Assembly: GCA_020832655.1 (NCBI GenBank)
Contig: JAFIEF010000013.1
Coordinates: 4,316-68,315, forward strand
Direction: 5' to 3'
From: Paracoccaceae bacterium
Lineage (GTDB): Bacteria > Pseudomonadota > Alphaproteobacteria > Rhodobacterales > Rhodobacteraceae
DNA length: 64,000 bases
Below are positions 2,424 to 63,064 of this stretch, piece by piece. Position numbers and translations under genes: made by a program. Under the pieces are notes generated by a model. It was not told where the DNA came from. It saw only the letters and a program-made list of their open reading frames with translations, and made no database searches. The number at the start of each line of letters is the position of its first letter. Within the stretch, counting starts at the first letter, position 1.

Positions 2424-2424
2424 A

Positions 2425-2496
2425 GCCCCTGCCCCCCGCGCGGGCTGTGTGCCCACCCACCCACCCTTGCACCCAACCCGCGCGGGGGACAGGGGC
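2425..2496. repeat. Hairpin element A: 20-bp stem (1 mismatch) around a (CCCA)3CCC loop, which reads as a G-quadruplex motif on the minus strand
   Basis: Arms 2425-2444 gcccctgccccccgcgcggg and 2477-2496 cccgcgcgggggacaggggc; core cccacccacccaccc at 2452-2466; lies between convergent dsbB and pepN. Confidence 0.9.
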
Positions 2497-2500
2497 GGCA

Positions 2501-7055: not shown

Positions 7056-7080
7056 CCGCGCGCCAGACTTACACGCCAAG

Positions 7081-7130
7081 GCGCCCGCGCGCGGCACCCA
7101 CCCGCCCGCCCCTGCACCGCGCGCGGGCGC
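7081..7130. repeat. Hairpin element B: perfect 14-bp stem around a CCCACCCGCCCGCCCC loop (minus-strand G4 motif)
   Basis: Arms 7081-7094 gcgcccgcgcgcgg and 7117-7130 ccgcgcgcgggcgc; C-tracts at 7097-7112. Confidence 0.9.
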
Positions 7131-7264
7131 GCCTGATGCTGACGCATCAGGCAAGGGTGGCCGCGCAGCCCTGCCAAATCGCCACAAAGCCCGTCTGCGC
7201 CCTTGTGCGTGTCCCCCTTGCTGCATACATTCTGAACATTCCCAGTAGTGGTGTGGAGGCGTTC

Positions 7265-8218
7265 TTGAAAAGGTCATTTCTGCCGGTCGTTCTGGCCCTG
7301 ATTTCGGGATTTATCGCCATGCCTGCTGCCAGCGCTGCCTCTGAATTGCGCCAGATCAGGGCAGAGATCATGGTGCTGGAGCGTATCGCGCTGCCCGATG
7401 ACACGATGATCCTTGCCGAGTTGTCGGATATGAATGACAACCCGGTTGCGTCATTGCGCCGCCCAACCGATGGCGCGCAAAGCCCGTTCGCGGTGTCGCT
7501 GGAAGCACCATCCGGGCAGGATCTGATCCTGCGGGCCGGGCTGCGCGGTCTGGATGATGTGCTTTGGCTGGCCGAGCCCGTGATGCTGCCTGCCGGCGAT
7601 GACGATATCGAGCTTGCCGGTCTGCGCGCCCTGCGCACCGAGCGCATGGGCGCTGCGGCCGTGCTGCAATGTGGCAACCAGTTGCTGGAACTTGGCACCC
7701 TGCCTGATGAGTTGCGCCTGCGCTTCAACGAGCAGACATTGCAGCTGACCCAGTCAGAGGCAGCCTCTGGCACGCTTTATGTGGCCCCCGACAACCCCGC
7801 CACCCAGCTTCACATGAAAGGCGATGAGGGCATCTTGCGCATCGACGGGGCGGAACTTGCGCCCTGCCGCCTGATCGCGCCCGAAATAGCATTAAGCGAC
7901 AGCGTCTGGAACGTGACCTCGATCGATGGCAAGGCCACGATCTTCCCTTCGCGGACAGAGCTTGTCTTTTATCCCGATGGTCGCTTCAGCGCGACAGTGG
8001 GCTGCAACCGGCTTATCGGCAGCTATCGTCGTCATGGCGCAGTGCTTAGTATCGGGCGCATGGCCAGCACCATGATGGCCTGCCCTGACGGGTTGCAGCA
8101 GCAGGAACGCCTGTTCACCGATGCGCTGCAACGGGTCGATGGCTACAAGATCGACGCCGAGGCCGGGCGCGTGGTGCTGATGGCGGGCGGTCAGCCGCTG
8201 ATCAGCGCGCGGAAATAG
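7265..8218 (+). CDS. Exported multidomain protein: YbaY-like + MliC-like + META (HslJ) domains
   Basis: TTG start at 7265 after GGAGG, signal peptide; ERIALP (YbaY-like), C...ASGTLY...KG (MliC-like), GCNRLIGSY...STMMAC (META). Confidence 0.75.
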   Translation: MKRSFLPVVLALISGFIAMPAASAASELRQIRAEIMVLERIALPDDTMILAELSDMNDNPVASLRRPTDGAQSPFAVSLEAPSGQDLILRAGLRGLDDVLWLAEPVMLPAGDDDIELAGLRALRTERMGAAAVLQCGNQLLELGTLPDELRLRFNEQTLQLTQSEAASGTLYVAPDNPATQLHMKGDEGILRIDGAELAPCRLIAPEIALSDSVWNVTSIDGKATIFPSRTELVFYPDGRFSATVGCNRLIGSYRRHGAVLSIGRMASTMMACPDGLQQQERLFTDALQRVDGYKIDAEAGRVVLMAGGQPLISARK

Positions 8219-8286
8219 CATTGCCAGCCAGAATGCCCCGGCTGCGCCGTTACAAGATTGACAGAATTCGCGGATACAAGACCTTC

Positions 8287-10479
8287 ATGAGTGCAACACC
8301 ACAACAGCCCCCCAGCGCGGATTTCCTGAACGCGCCTTTCCCTGCGCCCAAGCATCTGGATGGGTTTGACCCGTCCGGTCCGCAGCGCTTCTTCAATCGC
8401 GAATTGTCATGGCTTGCCTTTAACTGGCGGGTGCTGGAAGAGGCGATGAACCCCCGTGTGCCGCTGCTGGAACGGGTACGTTTCCTGTCGATCTCTGCCA
8501 CCAATCTGGATGAATTCTATACCGTGCGCGTGGCCGGTCTGCGGCAATTGGCGATGGCGGGAAATACCACCCCCTCTGATGACGGGCTGACCCCGGCAGA
8601 GCAGTTGCTGCTGATCAACGAAGATGCGCGCAAGCTGATGGATTACCAGCAAGAGGTCTGGGCGCATCTGCGCCCTGCCTTGCATGCGTCCGGCATCACC
8701 ATCCTGACGCGCGATGACATGACCGATGCGGATCGTGCCGCCGCTTCGGCCTATTTTCTGGAAAACGTGTTTCCGGTGCTGTCCCCGCTTGCGATTGACC
8801 CGGCGCATCCGTTTCCGTTCATTCCCAATGCCGGGTTCTCTCTGGCGATGGAATTGCGCGACCAGCATGGGCGCAAGCTGGATGCGCTGGTTCCGATTCC
8901 CGGCCAGATTGACCGTTTCCTGCGTCTGCCGGGCGATCCCATTCGCATGCTGCCGCTGGAGGAGCTGATCCTGGCAGAAATGGACTGCCTGTTTCCCGGC
9001 TACCGCCTGCTGGGATCATGCACCTTCTCGGTTTTGCGCGACAGCGATCTGGAGGTCGAGGAAGAGGCCGAGGATCTGGTGCGCGAATTCGAGGTGGCGC
9101 TGAAGCGCCGCCGCCGCGGCGAGGTGGTGCGGATGAAGATTTCCGCAAGCGCGCCGCGCGATCTGCGCGAACTGGTGATGGAAGAACTGGGCGTGGCCGA
9201 GGAAGATGTCATCGAGGTGCAGGGCATCATGGGCATCTCGACCCTGAAGGAACTGGTGCTTGACGACCGCGCCGACCTGCTTTGGGCAGGGTTTACCCCG
9301 CGTGTGCCCGAACGTGTGCAGGATCATGGCGGCGACATGTTCGCGGCGATCCGACAGAAGGACATGCTGCTGCACCACCCCTATGAAACCTTCGACATGG
9401 TGGTGCGCTTCCTGCAACAGGCGGCGGGCGACCCCGATGTTCTGGCCATCCGCCAGACGCTTTACCGCACTTCGCGCGACAGCCCGATCGTGGCGGCACT
9501 GTGCGAAGCCGCAGAGGCCGGGAAATCCGTGACCGCATTGGTCGAGTTGAAGGCCCGCTTTGACGAGGCCGCGAATATCCGCCAGTCGCGCAGGCTGGAA
9601 CGCTCTGGCGCGCATGTGGTCTATGGCTTTGTCAATTACAAGACCCATGCCAAGATCAGCACTGTCGTGCGCCGCGAAGGCAACCGGCTGGTCACCTATA
9701 CCCATTGGGGCACAGGCAATTATCACCCGATTACGGCGCGCATCTATACCGATCTGTCGCTCTTTACCTGTGACGCGGCGCTGGGGCGCGATGCGACGCG
9801 GGTGTTCAACTATGTTTCGGGCTATGCCGAACCGGCGGCGCTGGAAAATCTGGCGATCTCGCCGCTGACGCTGAAGCCGCGCCTGCTGGAACTGATCGCG
9901 GCAGAGGCCGCGCATGCCCGCGCCGGGCGGACCGCGCAGATCTGGGGCAAGATGAATTCGATCATCGATTCCGATGTGATCGATGCGCTCTATGAGGCCA
10001 GCCGCGCGGGGGTAGAGATTTCGCTGGTGGTGCGCGGCATTTGCGGGCTGCGCCCCGGCATTGCCGGGTTGTCGGAAAATATCCGCGTGAAATCCATAGT
10101 CGGGCGGTTTCTGGAACATTCGCGCATTGTGTGTTTCGGCAATGGCGCGGGGCTGCCATCTGATCAGGCGCGGGTGTTCTTCAGCTCTGCCGACTGGATG
10201 GGGCGTAATCTGGTGCGCCGGGTGGAAACGCTGGTCGAGGCCGTGAACCCGACCGTCAAGTCACAGATCATGGGTCAGATCATGGCGGCCAATCTGGCCG
10301 ATCAGGCGCAAAGCTGGGTGTTGCAGCCCGATGGCCCGGCGCAGCGTGTCCTGCCATCCGAAGGCGAAGAACGCCGGTTGTTCAACTGTCACCGCTTCTT
10401 CATGGAAAACCCGTCCCTGTCGGGGCGCGGCTCTGCCGGGGCGCAGGATGTGCCCGAATTGATGCATGGGCCGGATTGA
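8287..10479 (+). CDS. ppk: Polyphosphate kinase 1
   Basis: FFNRELSWLAFNWRV, LLHHPYE (phospho-His), ELKARFDE, SADWMGRN. Confidence 0.97.
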   Translation: MSATPQQPPSADFLNAPFPAPKHLDGFDPSGPQRFFNRELSWLAFNWRVLEEAMNPRVPLLERVRFLSISATNLDEFYTVRVAGLRQLAMAGNTTPSDDGLTPAEQLLLINEDARKLMDYQQEVWAHLRPALHASGITILTRDDMTDADRAAASAYFLENVFPVLSPLAIDPAHPFPFIPNAGFSLAMELRDQHGRKLDALVPIPGQIDRFLRLPGDPIRMLPLEELILAEMDCLFPGYRLLGSCTFSVLRDSDLEVEEEAEDLVREFEVALKRRRRGEVVRMKISASAPRDLRELVMEELGVAEEDVIEVQGIMGISTLKELVLDDRADLLWAGFTPRVPERVQDHGGDMFAAIRQKDMLLHHPYETFDMVVRFLQQAAGDPDVLAIRQTLYRTSRDSPIVAALCEAAEAGKSVTALVELKARFDEAANIRQSRRLERSGAHVVYGFVNYKTHAKISTVVRREGNRLVTYTHWGTGNYHPITARIYTDLSLFTCDAALGRDATRVFNYVSGYAEPAALENLAISPLTLKPRLLELIAAEAAHARAGRTAQIWGKMNSIIDSDVIDALYEASRAGVEISLVVRGICGLRPGIAGLSENIRVKSIVGRFLEHSRIVCFGNGAGLPSDQARVFFSSADWMGRNLVRRVETLVEAVNPTVKSQIMGQIMAANLADQAQSWVLQPDGPAQRVLPSEGEERRLFNCHRFFMENPSLSGRGSAGAQDVPELMHGPD

Positions 10480-49777: not shown

Positions 49778-51337
49778 TCAGAAATCGGTCGGTGCGCCCC
49801 CTTCGGATTTGCGCCGCGCCACGAAATCCATGAGCGCCGCGCGCCGGTCATCGGGCATGGGGGGCGGGATGAAATTATCGACAATCTGGCGATAGATGCC
49901 ATGCGCGCGGGTGATGGTGTCGATGGCGCCATCCCTCTCCCATGCTTCATAATTGCGCCAATCCGACACGAAAGGCGCGTAAAACGCGGTTTCATAACGC
50001 GCCTGCGTATGGCCCACGCCAAAGAAATGCCCGCCCGCGCCGACCTCGGCAATGGCATCCAGCGCCAGCGCATCGGGCGATGTGTCGGTCAGCACCGGGT
50101 CGCAGTAACGCTGGATCATCTGCAAGACCTCGCAATCCATGACGAATTTTTCGGGGCTTGCGATCAGCCCGCCTTCCAGCCAGCCGGCCGCGTGATAGAC
50201 AAGGTTCGACCCTGACTGCACCGCCGCCCACAGGCTGTTGCAGGTCTCCCACATGGCTTGCGCATCGGGGATATTGGCGGTGCAGACACCTGACGACCGC
50301 AGGGGCAGCCCGTAGCGGCGCGCAAGCTGGCCGGTCATCTGCGTCGCGCGCATATATTCGGGCGTGCCAAAGGCCGGCGCGCCCGAGCGCATATCGACAT
50401 TCGAGGTGAAAGTCCCAATCGCCACCGGCGCGCCGGGGGCGGCATATTGCAGCAGCGCAATCGCGCAGAGCGATTCCGCGATGGATTGCGCCACGGCACC
50501 GGCCAGCGTCACCGGGGCCATGGCACCGGCCAGCGTAAACGGCGTCACCACCACCGGCTGGCCCCGCCGCGCCATGCGCAGCGCGCCATCGATCATGGGG
50601 AAGTCATGGCGCAGCGGCGAGACCGAGTTGATATTGGTATACATGCGCGGGGCGGCGTCGAATTCGGCGTGGGTCAGCCCCGCTGCCAGCCGCACCATCT
50701 CCATCGCATCCTCGACCCGTTCGCGTCCAAGGCAATAGCAATGCACCACCTTGTCGGTCAGGATCAGCTTTTCGGCAATGCAATCGAGATGGCGGATGCC
50801 GGGATGAACATCCACCGGCTCCACCGGATAGCCGCCCGCGACATGGATGCAGTTGAACGCCTGCGTCAGCATCATGAATTCGCGGAAGGTGGCGAAATCG
50901 CCCGTCCGCTTGCCGCGGATCATGTCCCAGCTGGAGGGCGGCGAGGAGACATTGACAAAGGCGAGAGAGTTGCCGCCGACAGGCACCGCGCGCGCGGGGT
51001 TGCGCGGGGTGATGGTGAAGGGGCCGGGGGCGCGGGCGAGCATCGCCTCGACGAAATCGCCATCCATGCGCACATTCTGGCCAGTGACGATGCAGCCCGC
51101 CTGCCTGAACAGCGCGAGCGCGTCATCATGCAGGAATTCGACCCCGATTTCGGCCAGGATATGCAGCGCGGCCCTGTGAATGGCCTCGACCCCTTCGGGG
51201 GGCAGGGGTTCGGTGGGGCGGTCGGGGTTGCGGGGCACCTGCCAGTGCATCTGGTCCAGCCGGAAGCTTTCGGTACGCCGCGCATTGCCGCCCCGCCCGC
51301 CAGAGCGCCGCCGCCGCGCTTGGGTGTCACCTGCCAT
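49778..51337 (-). CDS. Trimethylamine methyltransferase (MttB) family, non-pyrrolysine type
   Basis: NSVSPL, PFTLAGAMAP, HAAGWLEGG, GGHFFG; no in-frame amber codon. Confidence 0.92.
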   Translation of the reverse strand: MAGDTQARRRRSGGRGGNARRTESFRLDQMHWQVPRNPDRPTEPLPPEGVEAIHRAALHILAEIGVEFLHDDALALFRQAGCIVTGQNVRMDGDFVEAMLARAPGPFTITPRNPARAVPVGGNSLAFVNVSSPPSSWDMIRGKRTGDFATFREFMMLTQAFNCIHVAGGYPVEPVDVHPGIRHLDCIAEKLILTDKVVHCYCLGRERVEDAMEMVRLAAGLTHAEFDAAPRMYTNINSVSPLRHDFPMIDGALRMARRGQPVVVTPFTLAGAMAPVTLAGAVAQSIAESLCAIALLQYAAPGAPVAIGTFTSNVDMRSGAPAFGTPEYMRATQMTGQLARRYGLPLRSSGVCTANIPDAQAMWETCNSLWAAVQSGSNLVYHAAGWLEGGLIASPEKFVMDCEVLQMIQRYCDPVLTDTSPDALALDAIAEVGAGGHFFGVGHTQARYETAFYAPFVSDWRNYEAWERDGAIDTITRAHGIYRQIVDNFIPPPMPDDRRAALMDFVARRKSEGGAPTDF

Positions 51338-51618
51338 GCCGGCCCTCCATGCCTCTGTCCGCGCGGGGTCGAGGCTAGAGGGCTCAGGGGGCCGCCGACA
51401 AGCGGAGTGTTGTCAGCAGGGATGTGGTGTTGGGGGAACGGGGGGAAGGGGACGATAGAGCCCACAGCGGACGGACGAGCTAAGCTCGCATTGACGGCGG
51501 CGACAGGCCATCAATTGTACCCATAGGAGGAGTGTTTTCCGAAGTTTCCTTGAAACCAATCGCGAAAAAACTGCCCTTCGAAAACGTAACTTTACGCTTT
51601 GACAGATGCGAGTGAGCA

Positions 51619-52056
51619 CTATCTGACAACAAATTGGAGTTTGCGAAGACAGGCTGCGGTTTCTTGAGTAAGATTGATAATTTCCCTGTCGCCACGTTCC
51701 CGTTCCAAGAGGTCTTCAAACAGAAATGTGCGGTGCATGGAAAACCGAACCAAATCCGTAATAAGATCACTGGAAGGGTTGCTGCTATGTGATAACAGAT
51801 CAGTTTCATGTAATACGTGGCGCGCGACTTCCCCGTTAAGCACACGCACCTCATCAATCATGCCCGGAGCGGCATTTGTTACTCGACCACCAAAACGATC
51901 GACAGCGCGAATATATTGGTTAAACCAACCAAGGCATTGAACATACTCCATATAGGAGAGAGATTGAGCGTTTGACGCAGTCGACGTGGAAATCGTCAGG
52001 CAGATAGCCCAGAGTGTGCGCAATAATGCCTTATCCACCACTGCCTCACTTAACAA
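51619..52056 (-). CDS. Hypothetical exported protein (two Cys); start may be GTG 52038
   Basis: Signal-peptide-like LLRTLWAICLTISTSTASNA|Q; GAGG just upstream of GTG 52038. Confidence 0.55.
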   Translation of the reverse strand: MLSEAVVDKALLRTLWAICLTISTSTASNAQSLSYMEYVQCLGWFNQYIRAVDRFGGRVTNAAPGMIDEVRVLNGEVARHVLHETDLLSHSSNPSSDLITDLVRFSMHRTFLFEDLLERERGDREIINLTQETAACLRKLQFVVR

Positions 52057-52071
52057 TATTTCAAATTGTGA

Positions 52072-52311
52072 TCAACGTGGCGCGAGATCGGGTTCACCGT
52101 GGAATATCCATGCCGGGCATGAGGAATATGGAGACCTTGCATCAATAAGCTCCACTGGACTGGCTGCTGGCTGAGTTCCTTTAGGTGCCTTGCAGCGTGC
52201 CCTCTGCTGCACAATGATTCGAAAAAAACCATCCGGGTAACGTCTATCGGACCAGCGCCAAGTCGCGTACTGGCAGTTCCGGCAACTGGAAGGAGGATAC
52301 TTCGACGCCAT
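52072..52311 (-). CDS. Small Cys4 hypothetical protein (79 aa)
   Basis: CRNC...C...CPAW; AGGA upstream of the ATG; tandem with the exported ORF. Confidence 0.45.
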   Translation of the reverse strand: MASKYPPSSCRNCQYATWRWSDRRYPDGFFRIIVQQRARCKAPKGTQPAASPVELIDARSPYSSCPAWIFHGEPDLAPR

Positions 52312-52490
52312 TTTGAATTTATCCTAAATTTCGCTCTCGCACCGAACAATTCATGCGGATTACATAAGTGACGTCCCTTAACAAGGCTGGTGGCCATGAT
52401 TACTGAAATCCCCGATGTGGATCAAGTACTGGTTTTCCCACGCCAAGGCTGACTGTCCGCAAGGTCCCGCAAAGCCGCCACGCGCGCCCC

Positions 52491-53327
52491 TCACCCCGCC
52501 CTTAACCCCCTGACCCACTCCGCCGCCTCATGGGCGTGGACCTCTGCCGCGCGGATATGGCCGTCAAAGCCCTGGGCCAGGTCGCGGATCAGGGGTTTGG
52601 CGCGGATCAGCAGATAGACCTCGCCCGCATAGACCGCCGCGCGGGTATAGCCAAACAGCGTCATCGGCGGGGCAAAACGCTTGCGCCCGTCGAACAGATA
52701 CATGCGAAAGGCGGGGTAAAGCTCGTCCACCATCTGCGCGATATGGTCGATCTGGCGCTGGCGCGCCGCCGCCCCCAGCCCCGCCCAATGCCCCGCGCCT
52801 TGGGCAAAGACCTGAAAGCTTTGCAGCGGCATGCACATTTCGATATCGGCCTCTGGTGCGCGCGACACTTGCAACCGCGCGCGCGTCTGGGCCTGCAGCC
52901 GCCGCCTTTCCTGATCGGAGCTTTGCGCCTGAAAGGCAATGATTTCGGGCGTGCGCATCAGATCGGGCAGCAAAGCGGGCACATAGCGGATTTTCTGCCC
53001 CGTGGCCTCTGCATGCCAGCGTTCCATCGCGGTGCGGCTGTGTTCATCGAGCGCGGCCTCGGTCTCTACCGCGTCGAGTGTCTGGGTAACGGTGCCTGCA
53101 TCCTCTGACAGCCCCAGCAGCCAATCGACCGAGACCTGAAACTGCGCCGCTATCGCCAGCAGGGTTTCGGCGCGCGGCAGGCGCGGGTCGGGGCCGGTCA
53201 GCAATTGCGACAGCGCCGAGCGGTCGATCGAGATCGCTGCCGCAAAGGCCGATTGCGTCTTGCCCGATTGCGCCAGCACCTGCGCCAGCCGCGCCCGAAA
53301 CAGCGCCGAGGCTTCGCGTTTGTTCAT
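52491..53327 (-). CDS. XRE-family HTH transcriptional regulator with a large C-terminal domain
   Basis: N-terminal QSAFAAAISIDRSALSQLL...VSVDWLLGL HTH; divergent from the desaturase operon. Confidence 0.88.
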   Translation of the reverse strand: MNKREASALFRARLAQVLAQSGKTQSAFAAAISIDRSALSQLLTGPDPRLPRAETLLAIAAQFQVSVDWLLGLSEDAGTVTQTLDAVETEAALDEHSRTAMERWHAEATGQKIRYVPALLPDLMRTPEIIAFQAQSSDQERRRLQAQTRARLQVSRAPEADIEMCMPLQSFQVFAQGAGHWAGLGAAARQRQIDHIAQMVDELYPAFRMYLFDGRKRFAPPMTLFGYTRAAVYAGEVYLLIRAKPLIRDLAQGFDGHIRAAEVHAHEAAEWVRGLRAG

Positions 53328-53446
53328 CGCCCTGTCCCTGCATACATGTTTCCTGAAGTAAGCATATTTTACCAAAGCCTGCAAATGTTATGAATACTGG
53401 GTAGAACACTCGCATTGCCCGAGCACGGGGTTGGCGGCACTCTTGG

Positions 53447-54430
53447 GTGCATGGGAACAGGGGGGCCGCATTGACGCGCATCGAATGGCCGACATTGGCG
53501 CTGATCATCGCCTGCTATGGTGTGTGGGGCGCGGCAGGGTTGTGGCTGTGGCCCATGCTGCCGGCGCTGGCGCTGGGGGGGATGGCGCTGGCCGCAGCGC
53601 TGCATTCCTCGCTGGTGCATGAATGCCTGCATGGCCACCCGACGCGCCATCGCCGCATCAATGAAGCGCTGGTCGCGCTGCCCTTGTCGCTGATCTATCC
53701 TTACCGGCGCTACCGCGCCACGCATCTGGCCCATCACCATGATGCACGGCTGACCGACCCCATCGAAGACCCCGAAAGCTATTACAAGGCGCGCTGGGCG
53801 CATGCGCGCATGCCGCGCTGGCTGCAAAAGCTGCTGGTGGTCAATAACAGCATGATCGGGCGGGTGGTGCTGGGTCCGGTTCTGGGCGCTGCGGGGTTTC
53901 TGGCGCAGGAGGGGCGGTTGCTTCGCGCAGATGCGCGCGGTGTGCGCCGGGCCTGGGCGTTGCATCTGGCGGGGGTGGGGCCGGTCATCGCGCTGCTCTG
54001 GGCATGGGGGATACCGCTGTGGCTTTATGTGCTGGCCGTGGTCTGGCCCGCGCTGGCGCTGATTTCGATCCGCACTTTCGCCGAGCATCGCTGGCATGAC
54101 GCGCCAGAGGGGCGCACCATCATTGTCGAGCGCTCGCCCCTGTCCTGGCTGTTTCTTCACAACAACCTGCATATCGTGCATCACCAGATGCCGGGGGTGC
54201 CCTGGTATGATCTGCCCCGCCTTTATGCCGGGAAACGCGAGTACTGGCGGGCGCTCAATCACGGCTATGTCTATCGCAATTACTGGCAGCTTTTCCGCGC
54301 CCATGCGCTGCGCCCCAAGGAGCCGGTGGTCCATCCGGTGCTGCACAACATGCCATCACCTGGCGACACCCGGCCGCCAGACACCCCTTGCGATCCGCCC
54401 CCCGCCCCCGTCAACAGGCAGCCAGCATGA
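53447..54430 (+). CDS. Fatty acid desaturase-family di-iron membrane protein
   Basis: His boxes HECLHGH, HLAHHH, EH and HIVHH; TM segments. Confidence 0.9.
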   Translation: MHGNRGAALTRIEWPTLALIIACYGVWGAAGLWLWPMLPALALGGMALAAALHSSLVHECLHGHPTRHRRINEALVALPLSLIYPYRRYRATHLAHHHDARLTDPIEDPESYYKARWAHARMPRWLQKLLVVNNSMIGRVVLGPVLGAAGFLAQEGRLLRADARGVRRAWALHLAGVGPVIALLWAWGIPLWLYVLAVVWPALALISIRTFAEHRWHDAPEGRTIIVERSPLSWLFLHNNLHIVHHQMPGVPWYDLPRLYAGKREYWRALNHGYVYRNYWQLFRAHALRPKEPVVHPVLHNMPSPGDTRPPDTPCDPPPAPVNRQPA

Positions 54431-55137
54431 GCGCGCTTGCGACATTGCCAATGTATGACTGGCCCGAGGCGCGCGCGCCCCTTGCCGCCTTTTACGCAAA
54501 ACTGCGCGCGCTGGTGCCCGAACTGCCCCGCCACCTGACCCGCCCCGAAACCGAGGCAGGGCTGCACGCGCTCTGGCGCGACCCGGCGTTGCTGCTGGGG
54601 CAAGCCTGCTGGGGGCCGATGCAGGCCGGGCTTGCGGCCCGTGTCCATGTTCTGGCCCAGCCGCTCTATGATGATGTGCCGGGGGGGTGCGGCATCCATT
54701 ACCGCTCTGCGCTAGTCATGCGCGATGGCACGCCCTGCCCTGTGCCCGACCATGAAGGGGCCGCGCTGCCTGACGCGCTGGCGGGGCTGCGCGTGGCGAT
54801 CAACGCGCCTGTCTCGATGTCGGGCAGCCTCGCTTTGGCGCAGGATAAGGGCGCGGGCATAGTCGCGCCGCTGATCACCGGCAGTCACCGCGCCTCGATC
54901 CGTGCCGTGGCCGAAGGGCGTGCAGATCTGGCCGCGATTGACTGCCGGTCCTGGGCGCTGGCGCTGGCGCATGAACCCGCCGCGCGCGCCCTTCGCGTTG
55001 TGGGCTGGACCGCGCGCCGCATTGGCCTGCCCTATATCACTGCGCGCAGCACGCCGGTTGCGCTGCGGCGCAAACTTGCCGCTGCGCTGGCGCGGCTTGG
55101 CGCGCAGCCCCACCCAGAATTGCAGGAGATCCCATGA
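54427..55137 (+). CDS. PhnD/SsuA-fold binding protein lacking a signal peptide
   Basis: LPMYD, YRSALV, SMSG, TGSHRAS, ADLAAID, PYIT motifs; 4-nt overlaps on both sides. Confidence 0.75.
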   Translation: MSALATLPMYDWPEARAPLAAFYAKLRALVPELPRHLTRPETEAGLHALWRDPALLLGQACWGPMQAGLAARVHVLAQPLYDDVPGGCGIHYRSALVMRDGTPCPVPDHEGAALPDALAGLRVAINAPVSMSGSLALAQDKGAGIVAPLITGSHRASIRAVAEGRADLAAIDCRSWALALAHEPAARALRVVGWTARRIGLPYITARSTPVALRRKLAAALARLGAQPHPELQEIP

Positions 55138-57680
55138 CCCAGACCTATCGCGCCATTGTCATCGGCGGCGGCGTTGTCGGCTGTTCGGTGCTCTATCATC
55201 TGGCCAAGGCCGGCTGGAGCGATGTGTTGCTGATCGAACGCTCTGAACTCACCTCCGGTTCCACCTGGCACGCGGCGGGCGGGTTTCACACCCTCAATGG
55301 CGACCCGAATGTGGCGCGGCTGCAAGCCTATACAATCTCGCTTTACGAAGAACTCGAACAGATGACCGGCCAGTCCTGCGGGCTGCATCTGGTGGGCGGC
55401 GTGCAGATGGCCGACAGCCCCGAGCGGCTGGATTTCCTGCGCATGGCCCATGCGCGCGGGCGCTACCTGGGCATGGAGACAGAGATCATCACCCCCCTGG
55501 AGGCCAAGGCCATGTTCCCGCTGATGGACGCATCGCATTTCGTCGGCGCGCTGTGGGATCCGGTTGAAGGCCATCTTGACCCGTCGGGCACAACCCACGC
55601 CTATGCCAAGGCCGCGCGTATGCTGGGCGCAAAGATCGAATTGCGCAACCCGGTGAAGGAACTGACGCAAGACGCGGATGGCACATGGAATGTCATCACC
55701 GAAAACGGCACCTACCGGGCCGAACATGTGGTCAATGCCGCGGGGCTTTGGGCGCGCGAAGTCGGGCGCATGGTCGGGCTGGAACTGCCGGTTCTGGCGA
55801 TGGAGCATATGTATCTTCTGACCGAAGCAATGCCCGAGGTGATCGACTTCAACGAAAGCATGGGGCGCGAGCTGATCCATGTGATCGACTTCAAGGGAGA
55901 GATCTATACAAGGCAGGAAGGCAAGGGCATCCTGCTGGGCACTTATGAAAAAGCCTGCAAGCCCTGGTCGCCCGTCACCACGCCCTGGGATTTCGGCCAT
56001 GAATTGTTGCAGCCAGATATCGACCGCCTTGCGCCCTCGCTGGAAGTGGGGTTTCGCCATTTCCCGCCCTATGAGAACGCGGGCATCAAGCAGATCATCA
56101 ATGGCCCCTTCACCTTTGCGCCTGACGGCAACCCGCTGGTCGGCCCGGTGCAGGGCTTGACGAATTACTGGTCGGCCTGCGCGGTGATGGCGGGGTTCAG
56201 CCAGGGCGGCGGGGTCGGGCTGGTGCTCGCGAACTGGATGACTACGGGCGATCCCGGCCATGATGTGTTCGGCATGGATGTGGCGCGCTATGGCGACTGG
56301 GCCAGCTTGCGCTATACCAACGCGAAAGTGCGCGAAAACTATTCGCGCCGCTTCTCCATCCGATTCCCGAACGAAGAACTCCCTGCCGCGCGCCCGCATC
56401 TGACAACGCCGCTTTATGATGTGATGACGCGCGACAATCATGCCGTGATGGGCGATAGCTGGGGGCTGGAGACACCCTTGTGGTTTGCCCCCTCGGCGGA
56501 TGCGGCGCATGACGTTCTGTCCTTCCACCGCTCGAATGATTTCGAACATGTCGGCGCTGAAGTGCGCGCCGTGCGCGACAGCGTGGGCGTGACCGAAATC
56601 GCCAATTTCGCGAAATATGAAGTCACAGGGCCGGGCGCGGAAGCCTTCCTTGATAGGCTGATGACCAACAAGCTGCCGAAACTCGGGCGCATCGTGCTGA
56701 CACCCATGCTCAACCCGAAAGGCAAGCTCATCGGCGATTTCACCATCGCCCGCGCCGGGCTTGATCGCTTCATGATCTGGGGGTCACTGGCGGCGACGAA
56801 ATACCATATGCGCTGGTTTGGAAAACACCTGCCGCAAGATGGCAGCGCCCAGATGCGCGCGGTGGGGCTGGGGCTGGTGGGCCTGTCCATTGCAGGCCCG
56901 AAATCGCGCGAAACCCTTGCCGCGCTGGTCGATGAGGATGTCTCGAATGCGGCCTTCCGCTTCATGGATTTCCGCGAAATGGATGTCGCGGGCGCGCCCT
57001 GTATGGTCAACCGCATCACCTATACCGGCGATCTGGGCTATGAAATCTGGATGTCCCCCGAATACCAGCGCCGCGTCTATGCCGCGATCAAACAGGCCGG
57101 GGCCGCGCATGACATCCGCGATTTCGGCATGCGCGCGCTTCTGTCGATGCGGTTTGAAAAGAACTTCCCCACATGGTTTGCCGAGCTGCGCCCCATCTAT
57201 GGCCCGATGGAAGGGGCGATGGAACGCTTTGTCGCCTATGACAAGCCCGGCTTCATTGGCCGCGAGGCTGCGCTGGCCGAACGCGACACCGGCCCCCGCC
57301 TGCGCCGGGTGTCGCTGATCATCGAGGCAGGCACCGCCGATGCCATCGCCGATGAACCGATCTGGGCGCGCATCCGCGATGATCATGGCACCATCACAGC
57401 GCCCCACAGCTATGGCCCCGCGCGGTTTGATGCGCAGGGTAATGCGCTTGCCACCCCGCACCCCTCAATAGATGGCGCGTGGCGGGTTGTGGGCTGGGTC
57501 ACATCGGGCGGCTATGGCCATCATGTCGGCCTGTCACTGGCGCAGGGCTATATTCCCGCCGCCCTGGCCACCCGCCCCGACACGGATCTGTTTGAGGTCG
57601 AGATCATGGGCAAACGCCTGCCCGCGCGCATCGCGACAGATCCTCCTTTTGACCCGCAAGGGGCGCGCATGCGAAGCTGA
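55134..57680 (+). CDS. Dimethylglycine dehydrogenase-like FAD oxidoreductase (GcvT family)
   Basis: GGGVVGCS, GSTWHAAG, NGPFTFAPDG, GFSQGGG, folate-binding GcvT domain. Confidence 0.9.
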   Translation: MTQTYRAIVIGGGVVGCSVLYHLAKAGWSDVLLIERSELTSGSTWHAAGGFHTLNGDPNVARLQAYTISLYEELEQMTGQSCGLHLVGGVQMADSPERLDFLRMAHARGRYLGMETEIITPLEAKAMFPLMDASHFVGALWDPVEGHLDPSGTTHAYAKAARMLGAKIELRNPVKELTQDADGTWNVITENGTYRAEHVVNAAGLWAREVGRMVGLELPVLAMEHMYLLTEAMPEVIDFNESMGRELIHVIDFKGEIYTRQEGKGILLGTYEKACKPWSPVTTPWDFGHELLQPDIDRLAPSLEVGFRHFPPYENAGIKQIINGPFTFAPDGNPLVGPVQGLTNYWSACAVMAGFSQGGGVGLVLANWMTTGDPGHDVFGMDVARYGDWASLRYTNAKVRENYSRRFSIRFPNEELPAARPHLTTPLYDVMTRDNHAVMGDSWGLETPLWFAPSADAAHDVLSFHRSNDFEHVGAEVRAVRDSVGVTEIANFAKYEVTGPGAEAFLDRLMTNKLPKLGRIVLTPMLNPKGKLIGDFTIARAGLDRFMIWGSLAATKYHMRWFGKHLPQDGSAQMRAVGLGLVGLSIAGPKSRETLAALVDEDVSNAAFRFMDFREMDVAGAPCMVNRITYTGDLGYEIWMSPEYQRRVYAAIKQAGAAHDIRDFGMRALLSMRFEKNFPTWFAELRPIYGPMEGAMERFVAYDKPGFIGREAALAERDTGPRLRRVSLIIEAGTADAIADEPIWARIRDDHGTITAPHSYGPARFDAQGNALATPHPSIDGAWRVVGWVTSGGYGHHVGLSLAQGYIPAALATRPDTDLFEVEIMGKRLPARIATDPPFDPQGARMRS

Positions 57681-57749
57681 TTTCATCTTGCAAGAAATAC
57701 TCTCGCCGAAGGCAGTGGGCCGCAAGGCCCGCCACCCCATCAGATGAAG
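57681..57749. repeat. Possible degenerate REP-like intergenic element
   Basis: ttcatct...agatgaa inverted ends and an internal TCATCTTGCAAGAAATACTCTCGCCGAAGGCA segment resembling by eye the Rhodobacteraceae intergenic repeats. Confidence 0.35.
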
Positions 57750-57758
57750 GGCCACCCG

Positions 57759-58853
57759 ATGAAGGCAGCACTCTGCACCCGCTTCAACGCCCCGCTTGAA
57801 ATCGCCGAACTTACGCTCGCCCCGCCGCGCGCGGGCGAGGTCGAGGTCACGCTGGCGGCCTGCGCGATCTGCCATTCGGATCTGCATTTCATCGAAGGCG
57901 CATGGGGCGGCGATCTGCCTGCCGTTTATGGCCATGAGGCCGCGGGCCATGTCACCGCCCTTGGCGATGGGGTCAGCGCTTACGCGCTGGGCCAGCGCGT
58001 GCTGGTCACGCTGATCCGCGCCTGCGGCACTTGCCAGTGCTGCACCGATGGGCGGCCTGTGATCTGCGAGGATGCGGGCGACAGTTCCACCCCCCTTGCC
58101 CTGCCAAATGGCACGCCGGTCACCCAGGGCATGAAAACCGGGGCGTTTGCCGAAAAGGTGGTGGTCGATGCCAGCCAGCTTGCCCCGCTGCCGGGTGACA
58201 TGCCGCTGGATGTGGCCTGTTTGCTGGCCTGCGGGGTGATTACCGGTGTCGGCGCGGTGTTCAACACTGCCGCCATGCCCGCCGGGGCCAGCGCGGTGGT
58301 GATCGGCACCGGGGGGGTGGGGCTGAACGCCATTCAGGGCGCGCGGATTGCAGGCGCGCGGCGCATCATCGCGCTGGATGTCGCGCCGGAAAAGCTGGAT
58401 GCCGCGCGCGAGTTTGGCGCAACCGACACCGTGCTGGCCAGCGACCGGGACGCGCGCAAACAGGTGCGGCGGCTGACCGAGGGGCGCGGCGCGGATTACG
58501 TCTTTGTCACCGTGGGGGCGGTTGCGGCCTATGAACAGGCGCTGGGGCTGTGCGCGCCGGGAGGAGCCATCATCATGGCGGGAATGACCGGCAATGATGA
58601 GTATATGCGCCTCAACCCGATGATGGCGGCCTATCAGGAACAGCGCCTGATCGGCTCAAAAATGGGCGGCACCGTTCTGCGCCGCGACATCCCCCGCCTG
58701 ATCGAGCTTTACCGCCAAGGACGCCTGAAGCTCGATGAGCTGATCTCGAACCGCTATCCGTTGGAACGGATCAACGAGGCCATTGCCGACACCGCCAGGG
58801 GCGGCACAAGGCGCAATGTGATCCTGTTCGATGCCTATGAGGACCGCCCATGA
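57759..58853 (+). CDS. Zn-dependent alcohol dehydrogenase (MDR family)
   Basis: CHSD, GHEAAG, structural Cys cluster, GTGGVG. Confidence 0.92.
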   Translation: MKAALCTRFNAPLEIAELTLAPPRAGEVEVTLAACAICHSDLHFIEGAWGGDLPAVYGHEAAGHVTALGDGVSAYALGQRVLVTLIRACGTCQCCTDGRPVICEDAGDSSTPLALPNGTPVTQGMKTGAFAEKVVVDASQLAPLPGDMPLDVACLLACGVITGVGAVFNTAAMPAGASAVVIGTGGVGLNAIQGARIAGARRIIALDVAPEKLDAAREFGATDTVLASDRDARKQVRRLTEGRGADYVFVTVGAVAAYEQALGLCAPGGAIIMAGMTGNDEYMRLNPMMAAYQEQRLIGSKMGGTVLRRDIPRLIELYRQGRLKLDELISNRYPLERINEAIADTARGGTRRNVILFDAYEDRP

Positions 58854-60082
58854 AGCTGGAGGGGCTGGAGATATTCACCATCGCCACCCCGCCGCCGGGC
58901 TGGGGCGGGCGCTACTGGATCATCGTCAAGCTGACCACCGAGTGTGGGCTGACAGGCTATGGAGAGGTCTATGCCGCCGCGGTCGGCCCGCAGGCGATGC
59001 GCGCGGTGATCGACGATGTGTTCACCCGCCACTGCCAAGGCGAAAACCCCGAAAACGTGGAAATGATGTTTCGCCGCGCCTATTCCTCGGGCTTCACCCA
59101 GCGCCCCGACCCGACGGTGATGGGGGCGTTTTCGGGGCTGGAAATGGCCGCTTGGGACATTCTGGGCAAGGCCCGCGACCGACCGGTCTGGGCGCTGCTG
59201 GGCGGGATGATGAACCCGCGATTGCGCGCCTATACCTATCTTTACCCGCTGCCGCATCATGACAAGGCGGCGTTCTGGACCAGCCCGGAAATGAACGCCG
59301 AAAGCGCGGCTGCGGCGGTCGGTCAGGGTTTTACCGCGATCAAGCTTGACCCCGCTGGCCCTTATACGCTGCGCGGCGGGCATCAGCCGGGGATGCGCGA
59401 TATTGATCTCTGCGACCGGATGCTGGGGGCTGTGCGCGCGGCCATCGGCAATCGCGCCGATATATTGCTGGGCACGCATGGGCAGTTCACGCCCGCAGGC
59501 GCAATCCGGCTGGGCGCGGCGCTGGAACGCCACCAACCAATGTGGTTCGAAGAACCCGTGCCGCCAGATGACATCGCGGGCATGGCCGAAGTGGCGCGCG
59601 CTGTGCGCATCCCCGTGGCCACGGGCGAGCGGCTTTGCACCAAGGCAGAGTTTGGCGCCGTGCTGCGTGCGGGCGCGGCCAGCATCCTGCAACCCGCGCT
59701 GGGGCGCGCGGGCGGGATATGGGAAGTGAAGAAGATCGCCGCCCTGGCAGAGGGCTTCGGCGCGCAGCTTGCCCCGCATCTTTATGCCGGGCCGGTGGAA
59801 TGGGCAGCGAATATTCATCTGGCAGCATCGATCCCCAACCTGCTGATGATCGAATGTATCGGGCAGGGGGGCGATTTCCACCTGCCGCTGATCGGCCACG
59901 CCCTGCGGGTCGAGGATGGCTTTGTCACCCCGCCCGACATCCCCGGCCTGGGGATTTTCTTTGACGAAAGTATTGCGCGGGCGCATCCTTACACGGGCGC
60001 AGAACTGCATCTTCAGATGCAGCAAGACCCTTGCGACTATGTTCATGGCAACAGTTTTGAAGGAGGGGCGCCCAGAGATTGA
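58850..60082 (+). CDS. Mandelate racemase/muconate lactonizing enzyme (enolase superfamily) protein
   Basis: WDILGKA, KLDP, GTHGQF, EEP, GERL, APHLYAGP. Confidence 0.9.
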   Translation: MKLEGLEIFTIATPPPGWGGRYWIIVKLTTECGLTGYGEVYAAAVGPQAMRAVIDDVFTRHCQGENPENVEMMFRRAYSSGFTQRPDPTVMGAFSGLEMAAWDILGKARDRPVWALLGGMMNPRLRAYTYLYPLPHHDKAAFWTSPEMNAESAAAAVGQGFTAIKLDPAGPYTLRGGHQPGMRDIDLCDRMLGAVRAAIGNRADILLGTHGQFTPAGAIRLGAALERHQPMWFEEPVPPDDIAGMAEVARAVRIPVATGERLCTKAEFGAVLRAGAASILQPALGRAGGIWEVKKIAALAEGFGAQLAPHLYAGPVEWAANIHLAASIPNLLMIECIGQGGDFHLPLIGHALRVEDGFVTPPDIPGLGIFFDESIARAHPYTGAELHLQMQQDPCDYVHGNSFEGGAPRD

Positions 60083-60235: not shown

Positions 60236-61873
60236 ATGACCCACCGCAAGCGCAAGGCAACCGAAATACACCCCGCTGCCGAACTCTATGCGCGCGAATG
60301 CCGCGCAGGGCAGCTCAGCCGCCGCGAATTCATGACCCGCGCCACCGCGCTGGGCGTGGCCGCGCCCGCCGCCTATGGCCTGCTGGGGCTTGCCGCACCC
60401 GAAGCGAAAGCGCAAACCCCGCAAATGGGCGGCACGCTGCGCATCCAGATGGATATCAAGGCCCAGCGCGACCCGCGTACATGGGACTGGTCGGAACTTT
60501 CGAATGTCTGCCGCGGCTGGCTGGAATATCTGGTCAGCTATGAACGCGACGGCTCGGTCCAGCCGGTGCTGCTGGAAAGCTGGGAAGCCAATGACGACGC
60601 CACGGTCTACACGCTGAATGTGCGCCCCGGCGTGAAATGGAACAATGGCGATGATTTCACCGCCGAACATGTCGCCCACAATATCGAACGCTGGTGCGAT
60701 GCCGCGGTCGAGGGCAATTCGATGGCCGGGCGGATGAGCGCGATTTCCGAGGATGGCAAGCTGCGCGAGGGCGCCATCGAAATCGTCGATGACCTGACCC
60801 TGCGGCTGCATTTGTCCAGCCCCGATATCGCGATCATCGTCAACATGACCGATTATCCGGCGGCTGTGGTGCATCCCTCCTTCACCGGCGATGACCCGGT
60901 CGCCAACCCCATCGGAACCGGCCCCTATCGCCCGGTCAGCCATGACACCGGCATCGGCGCGGTGATCGAACGCAACCCCGACCATACATGGTGGAACGAA
61001 GGCAATGGTGCGTATCTGGACCGGATCGAATTTCTGGATCTGGGCACCGACCCGGCGGCCTGGATGGCCGCAGCCGAAGGCGGCGAGATCGACATGACCT
61101 ATCAGACCACGGGTGATTTCGTCGATCTGTTCGAGATGATCGGCATGCCCGCGACCGAGGCCATCACTGCCGCGACGCTGGCTGTGCGCTTCAATCAGGA
61201 CAATGCGCCTTATGACAATGTCAATGTCCGCCGCGCGCTGCAAATGGCAGTGGACAACCAGATCGTGCTGGAACTGGGCTATAATGACCGCGGCACCGTG
61301 GCCGAAAACCACCATGTCTGCCCGATCCACCCCGAATATGCCGATATCGGTGCCACGCCCTTCGATCCGGCAGAGGCAAAGGCCATGATCGAGGCCGAAG
61401 GTCTGGGCGATCATGAATTCGAGCTGATCTCGATCGATGATGACTGGCAGGCGGCAACCTGCGACAGCGTCGCCGCGCAGATCCGTGCCGCCGGCATCAA
61501 TATCCGCCGCACCATCCTGCCCGGCGCGACCTTCTGGAATGACTGGCTGAACTATCCCTTTTCCTCGACCGAATGGAACATGCGGCCCCTGGGCGTGCAG
61601 GTGCTGAACCTGGCCTATCGTTCGGGTGTGGCGTGGAACGAGGCAGGCTTTGCCAATGCCGAGTTTGACGCGCTTCTGGATCGGGCCAATGGCATACCGG
61701 ATGCCGATGAACGCCGCGAGGTGATGGCGCAAATCCAGCAGATCATGCTGGATGAAGGCGTGCTGATCCAGCCCTATTGGCGCTCGCTCTATCGCAATGC
61801 GCGCCCCAATGTCCTGAATGCGGAAATGCACCCGACATTCGAAGTGCGCTATCAAAGCTACGCGCTGTCGTGA
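60236..61873 (+). CDS. ABC transporter substrate-binding protein, family 5 (Dpp/Opp/Nik), Tat-type signal
   Basis: SRREF twin-arginine motif, [19 protein letters not shown]. Confidence 0.93.
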
Positions 61874-61886
61874 TCGTGCAGCCTGT

Positions 61887-61908
61887 GCGGCGGGGCTGAC
61901 CCCGCCGC
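61887..61908 (+). terminator. GC-rich intercistronic hairpin after the binding-protein gene
   Basis: gcggcgggg-ctga-ccccgccgc, a perfect 9-bp stem. Confidence 0.55.
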
Positions 61909-61972
61909 GCCACCCCGCTTTTGCCCCGCAAGCCAACGCGCCGCCTTGGTGCCCCAGCAGACAGGAGGCAGG

Positions 61973-63064
61973 ATGTTCCTTTTCCTTGCCCGCCGCATAG
62001 GCGTGATGCTGGTCACGGCCCTGTGCCTGACCTTTGTCGTCTTCTACCTGACCAATCTGCCCGCCAAGCTGGAAACGCTGGCCAAGACACAGGCCGGATC
62101 GCGCATTTCCGATGCCGAGGTCGCAAGCTGGCTGGACCGCAACGGCTATAACCAGCCCATGCTGACGCGCTATGGCGAATGGCTGGGGGTGGCACGCGGC
62201 TGGACGCTGGCTGTCGATGACGGCGCCATGACGGGGCGCTGCTACCGTGCCTACGGGGTTTCGGAACCCGGCGCCGCGCCTTCACGCTGCGGGTTGTTGC
62301 AGGGTTATTGGGGCCATTCCACCCGCTTTCGTGCCGCCATCTCTGATGTCATCCCGCCACGGCTGGGGGCGACGGGGCTGTTGATGATGTGGGCGCTGAT
62401 CGTCATGGTGCCGATGGCGCTGCTGGTGGGCGTGCTGGCGGGCATGCGCGAAGGCTCGCGCACCGACAGGTCGCTTTCGACCTTCGCCATCGCCTCGACC
62501 GCGACACCGGAATATGTTTCCGGCGTGGTGTTCATCGCACTTCTGGCCTCCTCCACAGTGGGGCTGTCGCCGCTTCTGGTGCAATGGGGCTGGATCGACG
62601 GGCCGGTCCTGTTTCAGGGCAATGCGCGCTCGGCGCTGGAAAAGATCACATTCTGGAATTTCACCCTGCCGGTGATGACCATCGCGCTTTACGGCATGGG
62701 CTATGTCGCGCGAATCACCCGTGCGTCCATGACCGAAGTGATGACCCAGCAATATATCCGCACCGCGCGGCTGAAAGGCGTCAGCTTTGCCAATATCGTG
62801 CTGCGCCACGCGCTCAGGAATGCGCTGATCGCGCCCTTCACGGTGATCATGCTGCAAATCCCCTGGCTTCTGACCGGGGTCGTGATTGTCGAGGTGCTGT
62901 TCAGCTATCCGGGCTTCGGCTGGACCCTGTTCGAGGCCGCGGTGAACAATGATATCGAACTCCTGCTGGCCGCTTCGGTGGTGGCGGTGATCGTGGTGCT
63001 GCTGACGCAGCTGATCTCGGATATCGGCTATGTCTATCTCAACCCGCGCATCCGCGTAACATGA
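61973..63064 (+). CDS. ABC transporter permease (DppB-like)
   Basis: EAA region TQQYIRTARLKG, RHALRNAL, YVYLNPRIR; GGAGG SD. Confidence 0.93.
   Translation: MFLFLARRIGVMLVTALCLTFVVFYLTNLPAKLETLAKTQAGSRISDAEVASWLDRNGYNQPMLTRYGEWLGVARGWTLAVDDGAMTGRCYRAYGVSEPGAAPSRCGLLQGYWGHSTRFRAAISDVIPPRLGATGLLMMWALIVMVPMALLVGVLAGMREGSRTDRSLSTFAIASTATPEYVSGVVFIALLASSTVGLSPLLVQWGWIDGPVLFQGNARSALEKITFWNFTLPVMTIALYGMGYVARITRASMTEVMTQQYIRTARLKGVSFANIVLRHALRNALIAPFTVIMLQIPWLLTGVVIVEVLFSYPGFGWTLFEAAVNNDIELLLAASVVAVIVVLLTQLISDIGYVYLNPRIRVT

Follow-up and report, generated by a model that had tools for sequence, protein, structure and literature searches.

AioX, ArxX and ArrX (PDB 6esk, 6eu7, 8ed5, 6x6b) are binding proteins that sense arsenic oxyanions, arsenite in the case of AioX, and are not linked to a transporter. 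They share their fold with PhnD, PtxB and HtxB, the periplasmic phosphonate- and phosphite-binding proteins of ATP-binding cassette (ABC) importers. The AioX-AioS-AioR system is periplasmic, and cytoplasmic binding-protein sensors are known in NasS-NasT and AmiC-AmiR, where a signal-less binding-protein homologue is encoded beside, and often translationally coupled to, the gene of its regulator. Among membrane enzymes of the desaturase fold, MocD and AlkB are precedents for action on small polar substrates. We know of no AlkB, XylM, MocD, CrtW/CrtR or GntB system that has a soluble binding-protein partner. Such a partner may be encoded in a 64,000-nucleotide (nt) stretch of DNA from a Paracoccaceae bacterium (contig JAFIEF010000013.1), called the window below, in which a predicted membrane di-iron oxygenase of the fatty-acid-desaturase superfamily (DES) is followed directly by a signal-less binding protein of the AioX/PhnD fold (the binder). 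The DNA belongs to a genome from a bioreactor metagenome whose relatives are soda-lake Rhodobacteraceae.

The locus was analysed using the list of open reading frames (ORFs), Pfam and NCBIfam scans and the raw sequence, and all positions are numbered over the whole window. The DES gene (53447..54430, plus strand) encodes 327 amino acids (aa) and matches PF00487 with an E value of 3.3e-34. The binder gene (54427..55137, plus strand) encodes 236 aa and matches PF12974 (4e-13). It is followed by the gene of a dimethylglycine/sarcosine-dehydrogenase-type enzyme (DMGDH; 55134..57680, plus strand, 848 aa), in which Pfam finds all four domains, DAO, FAO_M, GCV_T and GCV_T_C, at E values of 4e-66 to 5e-12. 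An XRE-family regulator of 278 aa (52491..53327, minus strand; HTH_3, 1.3e-9) is divergent from DES. Its ORF has a longer form reaching a TTG at 53384; homologues fix the start at the conserved ATG at 53327. ATGA start/stop overlaps join DES to the binder (54427-54430) and the binder to DMGDH (55134-55137). The original prediction, made from the letters of this DNA, had described the same four genes and both overlaps, and the ORF list and raw sequence agree with it.

Conservation of the gene pair

Overlaps of 4 nt are commonplace in operons, so it is the conservation of the overlap that counts. A close set of 80 genome loci with 6-kb flanks was compared, whose relatives are 42-72% identical and come from Rhodobacteraceae, Mesorhizobium and allies, and one member of the Puniceispirillaceae. 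DES adjoins the binder in 75 of the 80. Four of the five exceptions are contig ends, and in the fifth (L051) a phage-type integrase is inserted at the spot. Within the flanks, XRE is found in 72 loci, DMGDH homologues in 71 and MttB homologues in 43. The DMGDH homologues are 72-92% identical and lie on the opposite strand in Mesorhizobium. The 4-nt overlap of DES and binder is found in 32 close loci, and that of binder and DMGDH in 24 of the 30 that have DMGDH on the same strand.

A broader view was obtained from an even sample of 401 alphaproteobacterial genomes. A full-length signal-less homologue of the binder, at 32-48% identity, is present in 54 of them (~13%). Leaving out the window's own genome, 44 of 53 genomes hold a DES homologue as well, and in 29 of these 44 the two genes are within 1.7 kb. 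The layout of the window, with XRE divergent from a DES-binder run, occurs in nine genomes. In the other 20 of these 29 genomes the binder is found on the side of the regulator, beyond a gap of ~1.1 kb that XRE fills in eight of the 11 fetched loci of this layout; XRE and binder overlap by 4 nt in L083, L088 and L096. DES and binder are also linked on Erwinia and Pantoea plasmids and in six of seven further metagenome or genome contexts of the broad family.

The conserved core of the module is the XRE regulator, DES and the binder. XRE is divergent from DES in 72 of the 80 close loci and in 13 of 20 diverse loci. When the binder is elsewhere in the genome the divergent XRE/DES pair stays intact, and no XRE gene is found beside the unlinked binder. 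DES/binder pairs also occur without the XRE family (L036, L085, L087, L091, L097, L102, L114, L116, L120 and L122). The gene-neighbourhood comparison, the check that the original prediction had named for itself, therefore supports its claim of a real, widely conserved and functionally unassigned DES/binder pairing. Its view of the unit as desaturase, binder and DMGDH under an XRE regulator needs revision: the coupling of DES and binder stands for the window, but XRE belongs to the core itself and the binder is more often on the regulator's side. A roseobacter-type variant (L112, L104, L105) has XRE divergent from a run of DUF2061, desaturase and DMT transporter genes, with no adjoining binder. 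Full-text literature searches, DUF2061 included, found no description of the DES/binder pairing, and it is absent from the text of the betaine paper PMC13381886.

A signal-less binder with an AioX-type pocket

The N-terminus of the binder (MSALATLPMYDWPE...) has no hydrophobic core according to its hydropathy. In the AlphaFold2 (AF2) model (pLDDT 94.5) the first beta-strand of the fold begins at residue 4. Many relatives have an in-frame stop 3-10 codons 5' of the start. Among the 150 best-scoring family representatives, drawn from a search of 1.84 billion, the alignment almost always begins within residues 1-12 of the representative. The close in-frame stops and the family alignment rule out an upstream, signal-encoding start. 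N-terminus, model and alignment together confirm the prediction that the binder is a cytoplasmic protein without a signal peptide. In the window and in over 100 loci that were compared, no PhnC/PhnE-type permease adjoins the binder, in agreement with the earlier claim that a cognate permease is missing; the sole ABC system nearby (from 60236) carries its own SBP_bac_5 binding protein.

The family comprises 589 representative clusters (50% identity) at E <= 1e-30 and 1777 at E <= 1e-10. Public annotation uniformly calls its members phosphate/phosphonate ABC transporter substrate-binding proteins, and no curated NCBIfam model matches the binder. The cytoplasmic location, the lack of a permease and the AioX-type pocket contradict this annotation. 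Longer members that might have been Rosetta-stone fusions (P0247, P0321, P0141) have no second Pfam domain.

The PhnD fold assigned earlier was recovered, both as a fold and as a PF12974 match, with the correction that the binder is nearer to AioX and ArrX than to the PhnD/SsuA transporter proteins. AioX and ArrX rank at the top in a profile search of PDB sequences and in Foldseek, followed by PtxB, HtxB and PhnD. Template modelling (TM) scores are ~0.7 for the best Foldseek matches (AioX, ArrX, PtxB and PhnD) and 0.66-0.70 for PhnD/PtxB. Alignment of the family profile with full-length AioX of strain NT-26 by hhalign gave 99.1% probability and an E value of 1.3e-18. The published AioX pocket consists of Tyr88, Cys106, Tyr131, Ser161, Ser163, His192 and Asp210, of which the Cys bonds arsenite (PMC5908839). 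AioX residues C106, Y131, S161, S163, H192 and D210 align with C61, Y92, S130, S132, H154 and D172 of the binder. All six vary little or not at all across the family, and the alignment offers no counterpart for the seventh, Tyr88. Y10, Q59, C61, S130, G133, H154, S157, D172 and P202 are invariant across the binder family, and its Cys motif is QTCGYP in the broad family, compared with ICGYP in AioX. In the modelled two-lobe fold the pocket residues occupy loops where strands end and helices start.

The AioX-like profile, fold and pocket, together with the missing export leader, place the binder in a cytoplasmic branch of the AioX-type oxyanion binders rather than among transporter components. 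A small phospho-, sulfo- or carboxylate-type ligand, as proposed in the original prediction, is plausible in view of the oxyanion-binding residue set that the pocket keeps. An arsenic function finds no support in the gene contexts examined, none of which has ars, aio, arr or arx genes.

The binder therefore resembles AioX, ArxX and ArrX in its pocket, its CGYP motif and its independence from a transporter, and it differs from them in several respects. AioX is periplasmic, with a leader of ~45 residues and an SRR motif, whereas the sequence of the binder opens with the first strand of the fold. The binder gene has neither a sensor kinase nor a response regulator gene beside it; its partners are XRE (or LysR) and oxygenases. 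An N-terminal LPMYD(W)PE motif is specific to the binder family. PhnD, PtxB and HtxB have in common with it PF12974, the fold and the oxyanion site made of Ser-x-Ser-Gly and His. The Ser, Ser, His and Tyr of the PhnD pocket are retained in the binder, whereas Gly65 is replaced by Cys61, Glu177 by Arg/Val174, Asp205 by Pro202 and a Thr by Met/Leu/Gln. In PhnD, Glu177 and Asp205 hold the amino group. The signal peptide and PhnC/PhnE of the PhnD system are missing.

Binders of the betaine islands described below form a subfamily marked by W12, CWGP (W62), Q78, D140, R174, E183, W194 and R198. Judged by secondary-structure position in the AF2 model, these residues fall in loops at strand ends that border the cleft. 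The subfamily's additional Trp and Arg residues would suit a zwitterion carrying a quaternary ammonium and an oxyanion. Mesorhizobium binders have an insertion of ~28 residues after the first helix.

The desaturase-fold enzyme

The PF00487 match of DES (119 bits) covers positions 3-251 of 253. The protein has the His boxes HECLH, HLAHHH and HNNLHIVHH, and its hydropathy indicates two long hydrophobic hairpins (segments 16-57 and 169-213). With three His boxes and the hairpins, DES is a predicted member of the membrane fatty-acid desaturase/hydroxylase superfamily. Just two NCBIfam models match, both weakly and below threshold, CrtR at 33 bits and GntB at 28 bits against cut-offs of 475 and 380; no curated NCBIfam equivalog and no sequence relative in the PDB were found.

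DES shares with AlkB, XylM, MocD, CrtW/CrtR and GntB the character of a three-His-box di-iron membrane enzyme encoded in a catabolic, locally regulated operon. It differs in scoring far under the CrtR and GntB cut-offs and in its lack of a conserved electron-transfer partner: no rubredoxin, Rieske protein or ferredoxin is conserved with DES, and a ferredoxin reductase is present only in L121.

The regulator and the intergenic motifs

The XRE protein consists of an N-terminal HTH_3 domain and a conserved C-terminal alpha/beta domain of ~190 aa that has no Pfam match. The family alignment has 32 invariant columns at 34-85% identity. In the AF2 model (pLDDT 87.7) the C-terminal domain is weakly TrmBL2/PLD-like (E ~2e-3, TM 0.34). 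This resemblance is too weak to name a ligand.

Two motifs lie between XRE and DES. A candidate operator at 53346..53365 (no strand assigned) is an imperfect 9-2-9 inverted repeat, ATGTTTCCT GA AGTAAGCAT, of putative function. It is 19-38 nt 5' of the XRE start, just 3' of a minus-strand promoter-like site, and its AGTAAACAT block is kept across 33 aligned Rhodobacteraceae intergenic regions. A conserved box, GAACACTCGCATTG, at 53404..53417 on the plus strand is 30-43 nt 5' of the DES start and is kept in the same 33 aligned Rhodobacteraceae regions; variants of it (TGCGCATTGTCGC) are present in Mesorhizobium and other families. The window has no other exact copy of GAACACTCGCATTG, with near-matches at chance level, and other matches to the operator motif in the window, such as those upstream of MttB, are likewise at chance level. 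As neither motif recurs above chance in the window, there is no sign that XRE also controls MttB or the sox genes.

Metabolic context

In Rhodobacteraceae, MttB-soxBDAG is on one flank of the module and DMGDH on the other, with MttB beside XRE in most related loci. In Mesorhizobium one flank has a homocysteine S-methyltransferase-family (BHMT-like) gene and DUF1989, and the other has a creatinase/prolidase-like M24 protein, a PMT_2 glycosyltransferase-like protein, DMGDH and MttB. An example is L044 (Mesorhizobium hawassense), at 2015-3741 and 6796-8304. The Puniceispirillaceae locus has an OpuAC-type betaine ABC importer 5' of the module. On a plasmid of Phaeobacter sp. G2 (L112) the variant is beside carnitine 3-dehydrogenase/BKACE genes, with an MttB-family gene ~7 kb off.

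Among 125 neighbour proteins of the 20 diverse alphaproteobacterial loci no flanking Pfam family is enriched; the top neighbour counts are three each, for GFA, EamA, GNAT, FkbM methyltransferase and NUDIX. Operon partners in diverse loci include DAO with an amidase, an aromatic amino-acid lyase, an LLM monooxygenase, EamA and a second desaturase. TauD, a Rieske oxygenase, BKACE/carnitine dehydrogenase, MttB and EamA/DMT transporters are other neighbours. Plasmids, chromids and catabolic islands carry most of the module genes. What recurs is not one pathway but the catabolism of small polar nitrogen or sulfur compounds by oxygenases or flavoproteins, on accessory replicons. Only Rhodobacteraceae and Mesorhizobium-type genomes show the link to DMGDH and MttB, and with it to N-methyl catabolism. 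The N-methyl link made in the earlier note thus holds for the lineage of the window, where the module is in a betaine island, and does not show as an enrichment in the 20 diverse loci.

Possible function of the module

The reading tentatively preferred, though short of probable, is that the binder serves a membrane di-iron oxygenase as its soluble partner, recognising the substrate or capturing the product, and that this oxygenase acts on a small polar oxyanion or zwitterion. The binder would take up a small polar oxyanion-bearing compound through its conserved Tyr/Cys/Ser/Ser/His/Asp pocket and would present it to the oxygenase or capture the product. DES would hydroxylate the bound compound instead of desaturating a lipid, and XRE, a putative repressor that has an effector domain of its own, would respond to the compound by allowing expression of the module. 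The distinct Trp12/Trp62/Trp194/Arg174/Arg198 subfamily of binders, seen in Rhodobacteraceae and Mesorhizobium-type genomes, may have been recruited there into a betaine demethylation island made of MttB or BHMT, DMGDH and sarcosine oxidase. Because the binder is translationally coupled to DMGDH in the window, the ligand here would probably be a quaternary-ammonium/oxyanion zwitterion that feeds the demethylation route.

For this partnership speak the conserved pairing, the AioX-like pocket, a setting that is catabolic and not housekeeping and, as a weak precedent, the matches to CrtR and GntB. A number of observations weigh against it. The binder is on the regulator's side in 20 of the 29 linked genomes, sometimes with the 4-nt XRE overlap, and in L117, L118 and L121 it is directly 3' of a LysR regulator gene, a pattern that better suits a sensor. 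Nine genomes hold a binder homologue but no DES, and some keep XRE/DES without an adjoining binder. One member of the Trp-rich subfamily, in a DES-less genome (L100), adjoins a PHO4 phosphate transporter. No downstream catabolic enzyme is consistently linked, which is odd if a hydroxylated product needs processing. The window's own genome encodes BetA (above cut-off) and, elsewhere, BKACE, which leave no obvious gap in betaine metabolism; DES as an absent choline oxidase or carnitine-pathway enzyme finds no evident gap to fill in that genome.

A sensor role for the binder is a serious rival to the role of substrate carrier, since its nearest relatives, AioX and ArrX, are signalling and not transport proteins. 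The binder would then be a cytoplasmic ligand sensor that works with a transcription regulator as a split one-component system, and DES merely a regulated output. This reading appears unlikely. The regulator-side placement, the XRE gene between binder and DES, the overlaps and the LysR pairs noted above all speak for it; in L118 and L121 the LysR-binder pair is divergent from an operon of Rieske oxygenase, Cys_Met_Meta_PP and FAD-oxidoreductase genes. Yet the DES/binder pair survives loss of XRE in at least ten loci, and where the trio is broken up it is DES, not the binder, that keeps XRE beside it; both findings favour a binder-oxygenase partnership over a pure sensor. XRE has its own conserved putative effector domain, one sensor family is unlikely to dock on two unrelated regulator families (XRE and LysR), and in the window the binder gene sits between two enzyme genes. 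NasS-NasT and AmiC-AmiR, the cytoplasmic parallels, also differ in that their regulators are ANTAR RNA-binding antiterminators, whereas XRE and LysR are DNA-binding proteins, and in that NasS and AmiC belong to the NrtA and LivJ fold groups rather than the AioX/PhnD group. Here the binder is linked more strongly to the oxygenase than to the regulator, and the regulator-side placement is not that of the window. If the binder is a sensor, the NasS/AmiC principle of a cytoplasmic binding-protein sensor would be extended to XRE-type DNA-binding regulators.

It is distinctly unlikely that DES is a genuine membrane-lipid desaturase or hydroxylase whose binder confers specificity by binding the head group of the lipid (a phosphate with an amine or choline) or else extracts the lipid. 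The full-length PF00487 match with canonical His boxes is what such an enzyme would have, the core trio stands by itself, lacking any transporter or downstream enzyme that recurs consistently, the pocket fits a phosphate-plus-ammonium head group, and the PhnD-fold sterol transporter 7t1m is among the Foldseek matches. The setting on accessory replicons or catabolic islands, with effector-type local regulators, argues against a housekeeping desaturase, however, as do the small-molecule transporters and amine or sulfonate oxygenases that recur nearby, the small and polar pocket of the AioX template and the patchy distribution (54 of 401 genomes). Very doubtful, too, is capture by the binder of a reactive by-product of dealkylation, either formaldehyde as a thiohemiacetal of the Cys or a pyramidal oxyanion such as sulfite, with the binder acting as a buffer or as a post-oxygenase enzyme of the periplasmic-binding-protein (PBP) fold. 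In AioX the homologue of the invariant Cys61 is the residue that forms a bond with As(OH)3, and the PBP-fold enzyme MqnD is a weaker Foldseek match. Genes of the GFA domain, the family of glutathione-dependent formaldehyde-activating enzymes, are directly 5' of the binder in L081 (7379-8287), L090 (7327-7767) and L098 (7595-8020), as a tandem duplicate in L081 and overlapping the binder start in L090 and L098, and a GST gene is 3' of the binder in L083. The window operon has a class-III-like Zn alcohol dehydrogenase (Zn-ADH), and the neighbours DMGDH, sarcosine oxidase, DAO, Rieske and LLM/TauD enzymes release aldehydes or sulfite. This support comes purely from gene context, though, and the GFA linkage is confined to two alphaproteobacterial families; the contexts with an aromatic amino-acid lyase or an amidase release neither formaldehyde nor sulfite, and the tight linkage to DES is left unexplained.

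If the pairing of binder and oxygenase is functional, it would give a membrane enzyme of the desaturase fold a soluble subunit for recognition, and no earlier case of this is known to us. A wider proposal, possible but more improbable than not by a clear measure, is that of an undescribed two-component membrane oxygenase in which the cytoplasmic AioX-type binder, with its invariant Cys-Tyr-Ser-Ser-His-Asp pocket, captures a small oxyanionic or zwitterionic metabolite for DES, or else a reactive C1 or oxyanion fragment that DES releases. XRE with its new effector domain would control the system, and in Rhodobacteraceae and Mesorhizobium that degrade betaine the system would give quaternary-amine catabolism an oxygen-dependent step not recognised so far. 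Marine, soda-lake and rhizosphere bacteria use betaines and related osmolytes as major currencies of carbon, nitrogen and methyl groups, and a functional pairing could expose a missing oxygen-dependent reaction in the turnover of these compounds.

Neighbouring genes and variant loci

In the window the DMGDH gene is followed by that of the Zn-ADH (57744-58853, plus strand), which is related to class III/formaldehyde dehydrogenases below curated cut-offs. Its nearest models are the NDMA-, mycothiol- and glutathione-dependent formaldehyde dehydrogenases, every one below cut-off. A gene of the enolase-superfamily MR/MLE type (58850-60082, plus strand) overlaps it by 4 nt, and a peptide/opine-type ABC importer with SBP_bac_5 (60236-63064) is 3' of the MR/MLE gene. 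Most Rhodobacteraceae loci keep this set of Zn-ADH, MR/MLE protein and ABC importer 3' of DMGDH. From 53447 to 60082 no terminator-like site rises above chance. A search for RNA reads from the operon turned up the stretch in metagenome DNA runs only.

Among the loci with a LysR-linked binder, a ferredoxin-reductase-type gene is between the binder and the divergent DES/XRE pair in L121, and insertion sequence (IS) elements are between them in L118. On plasmid pRL4b5 of Rhizobium leguminosarum (L101) a more distant member of the binder family ends a same-strand run of flavin reductase, LLM monooxygenase, aldehyde dehydrogenase, NIPSNAP, ABC importer and succinate-semialdehyde dehydrogenase genes. 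The sister plasmid NZ_CP050111.1 has a DES homologue ~23 kb off.

On the other side of the regulator, all on the minus strand, are the genes of an MttB-superfamily methyltransferase (49778-51337), sarcosine oxidase beta (48474-49778) and sarcosine oxidase alpha (45286-48288). XRE is parted from MttB by a low-GC insert at 51480-52440, with a GC content of ~0.50 compared with 0.63-0.68 around it and two minus-strand ORFs that have no Pfam match. In related Rhodobacteraceae, for example L001 and L004, the gap between the two genes is only ~200 nt.

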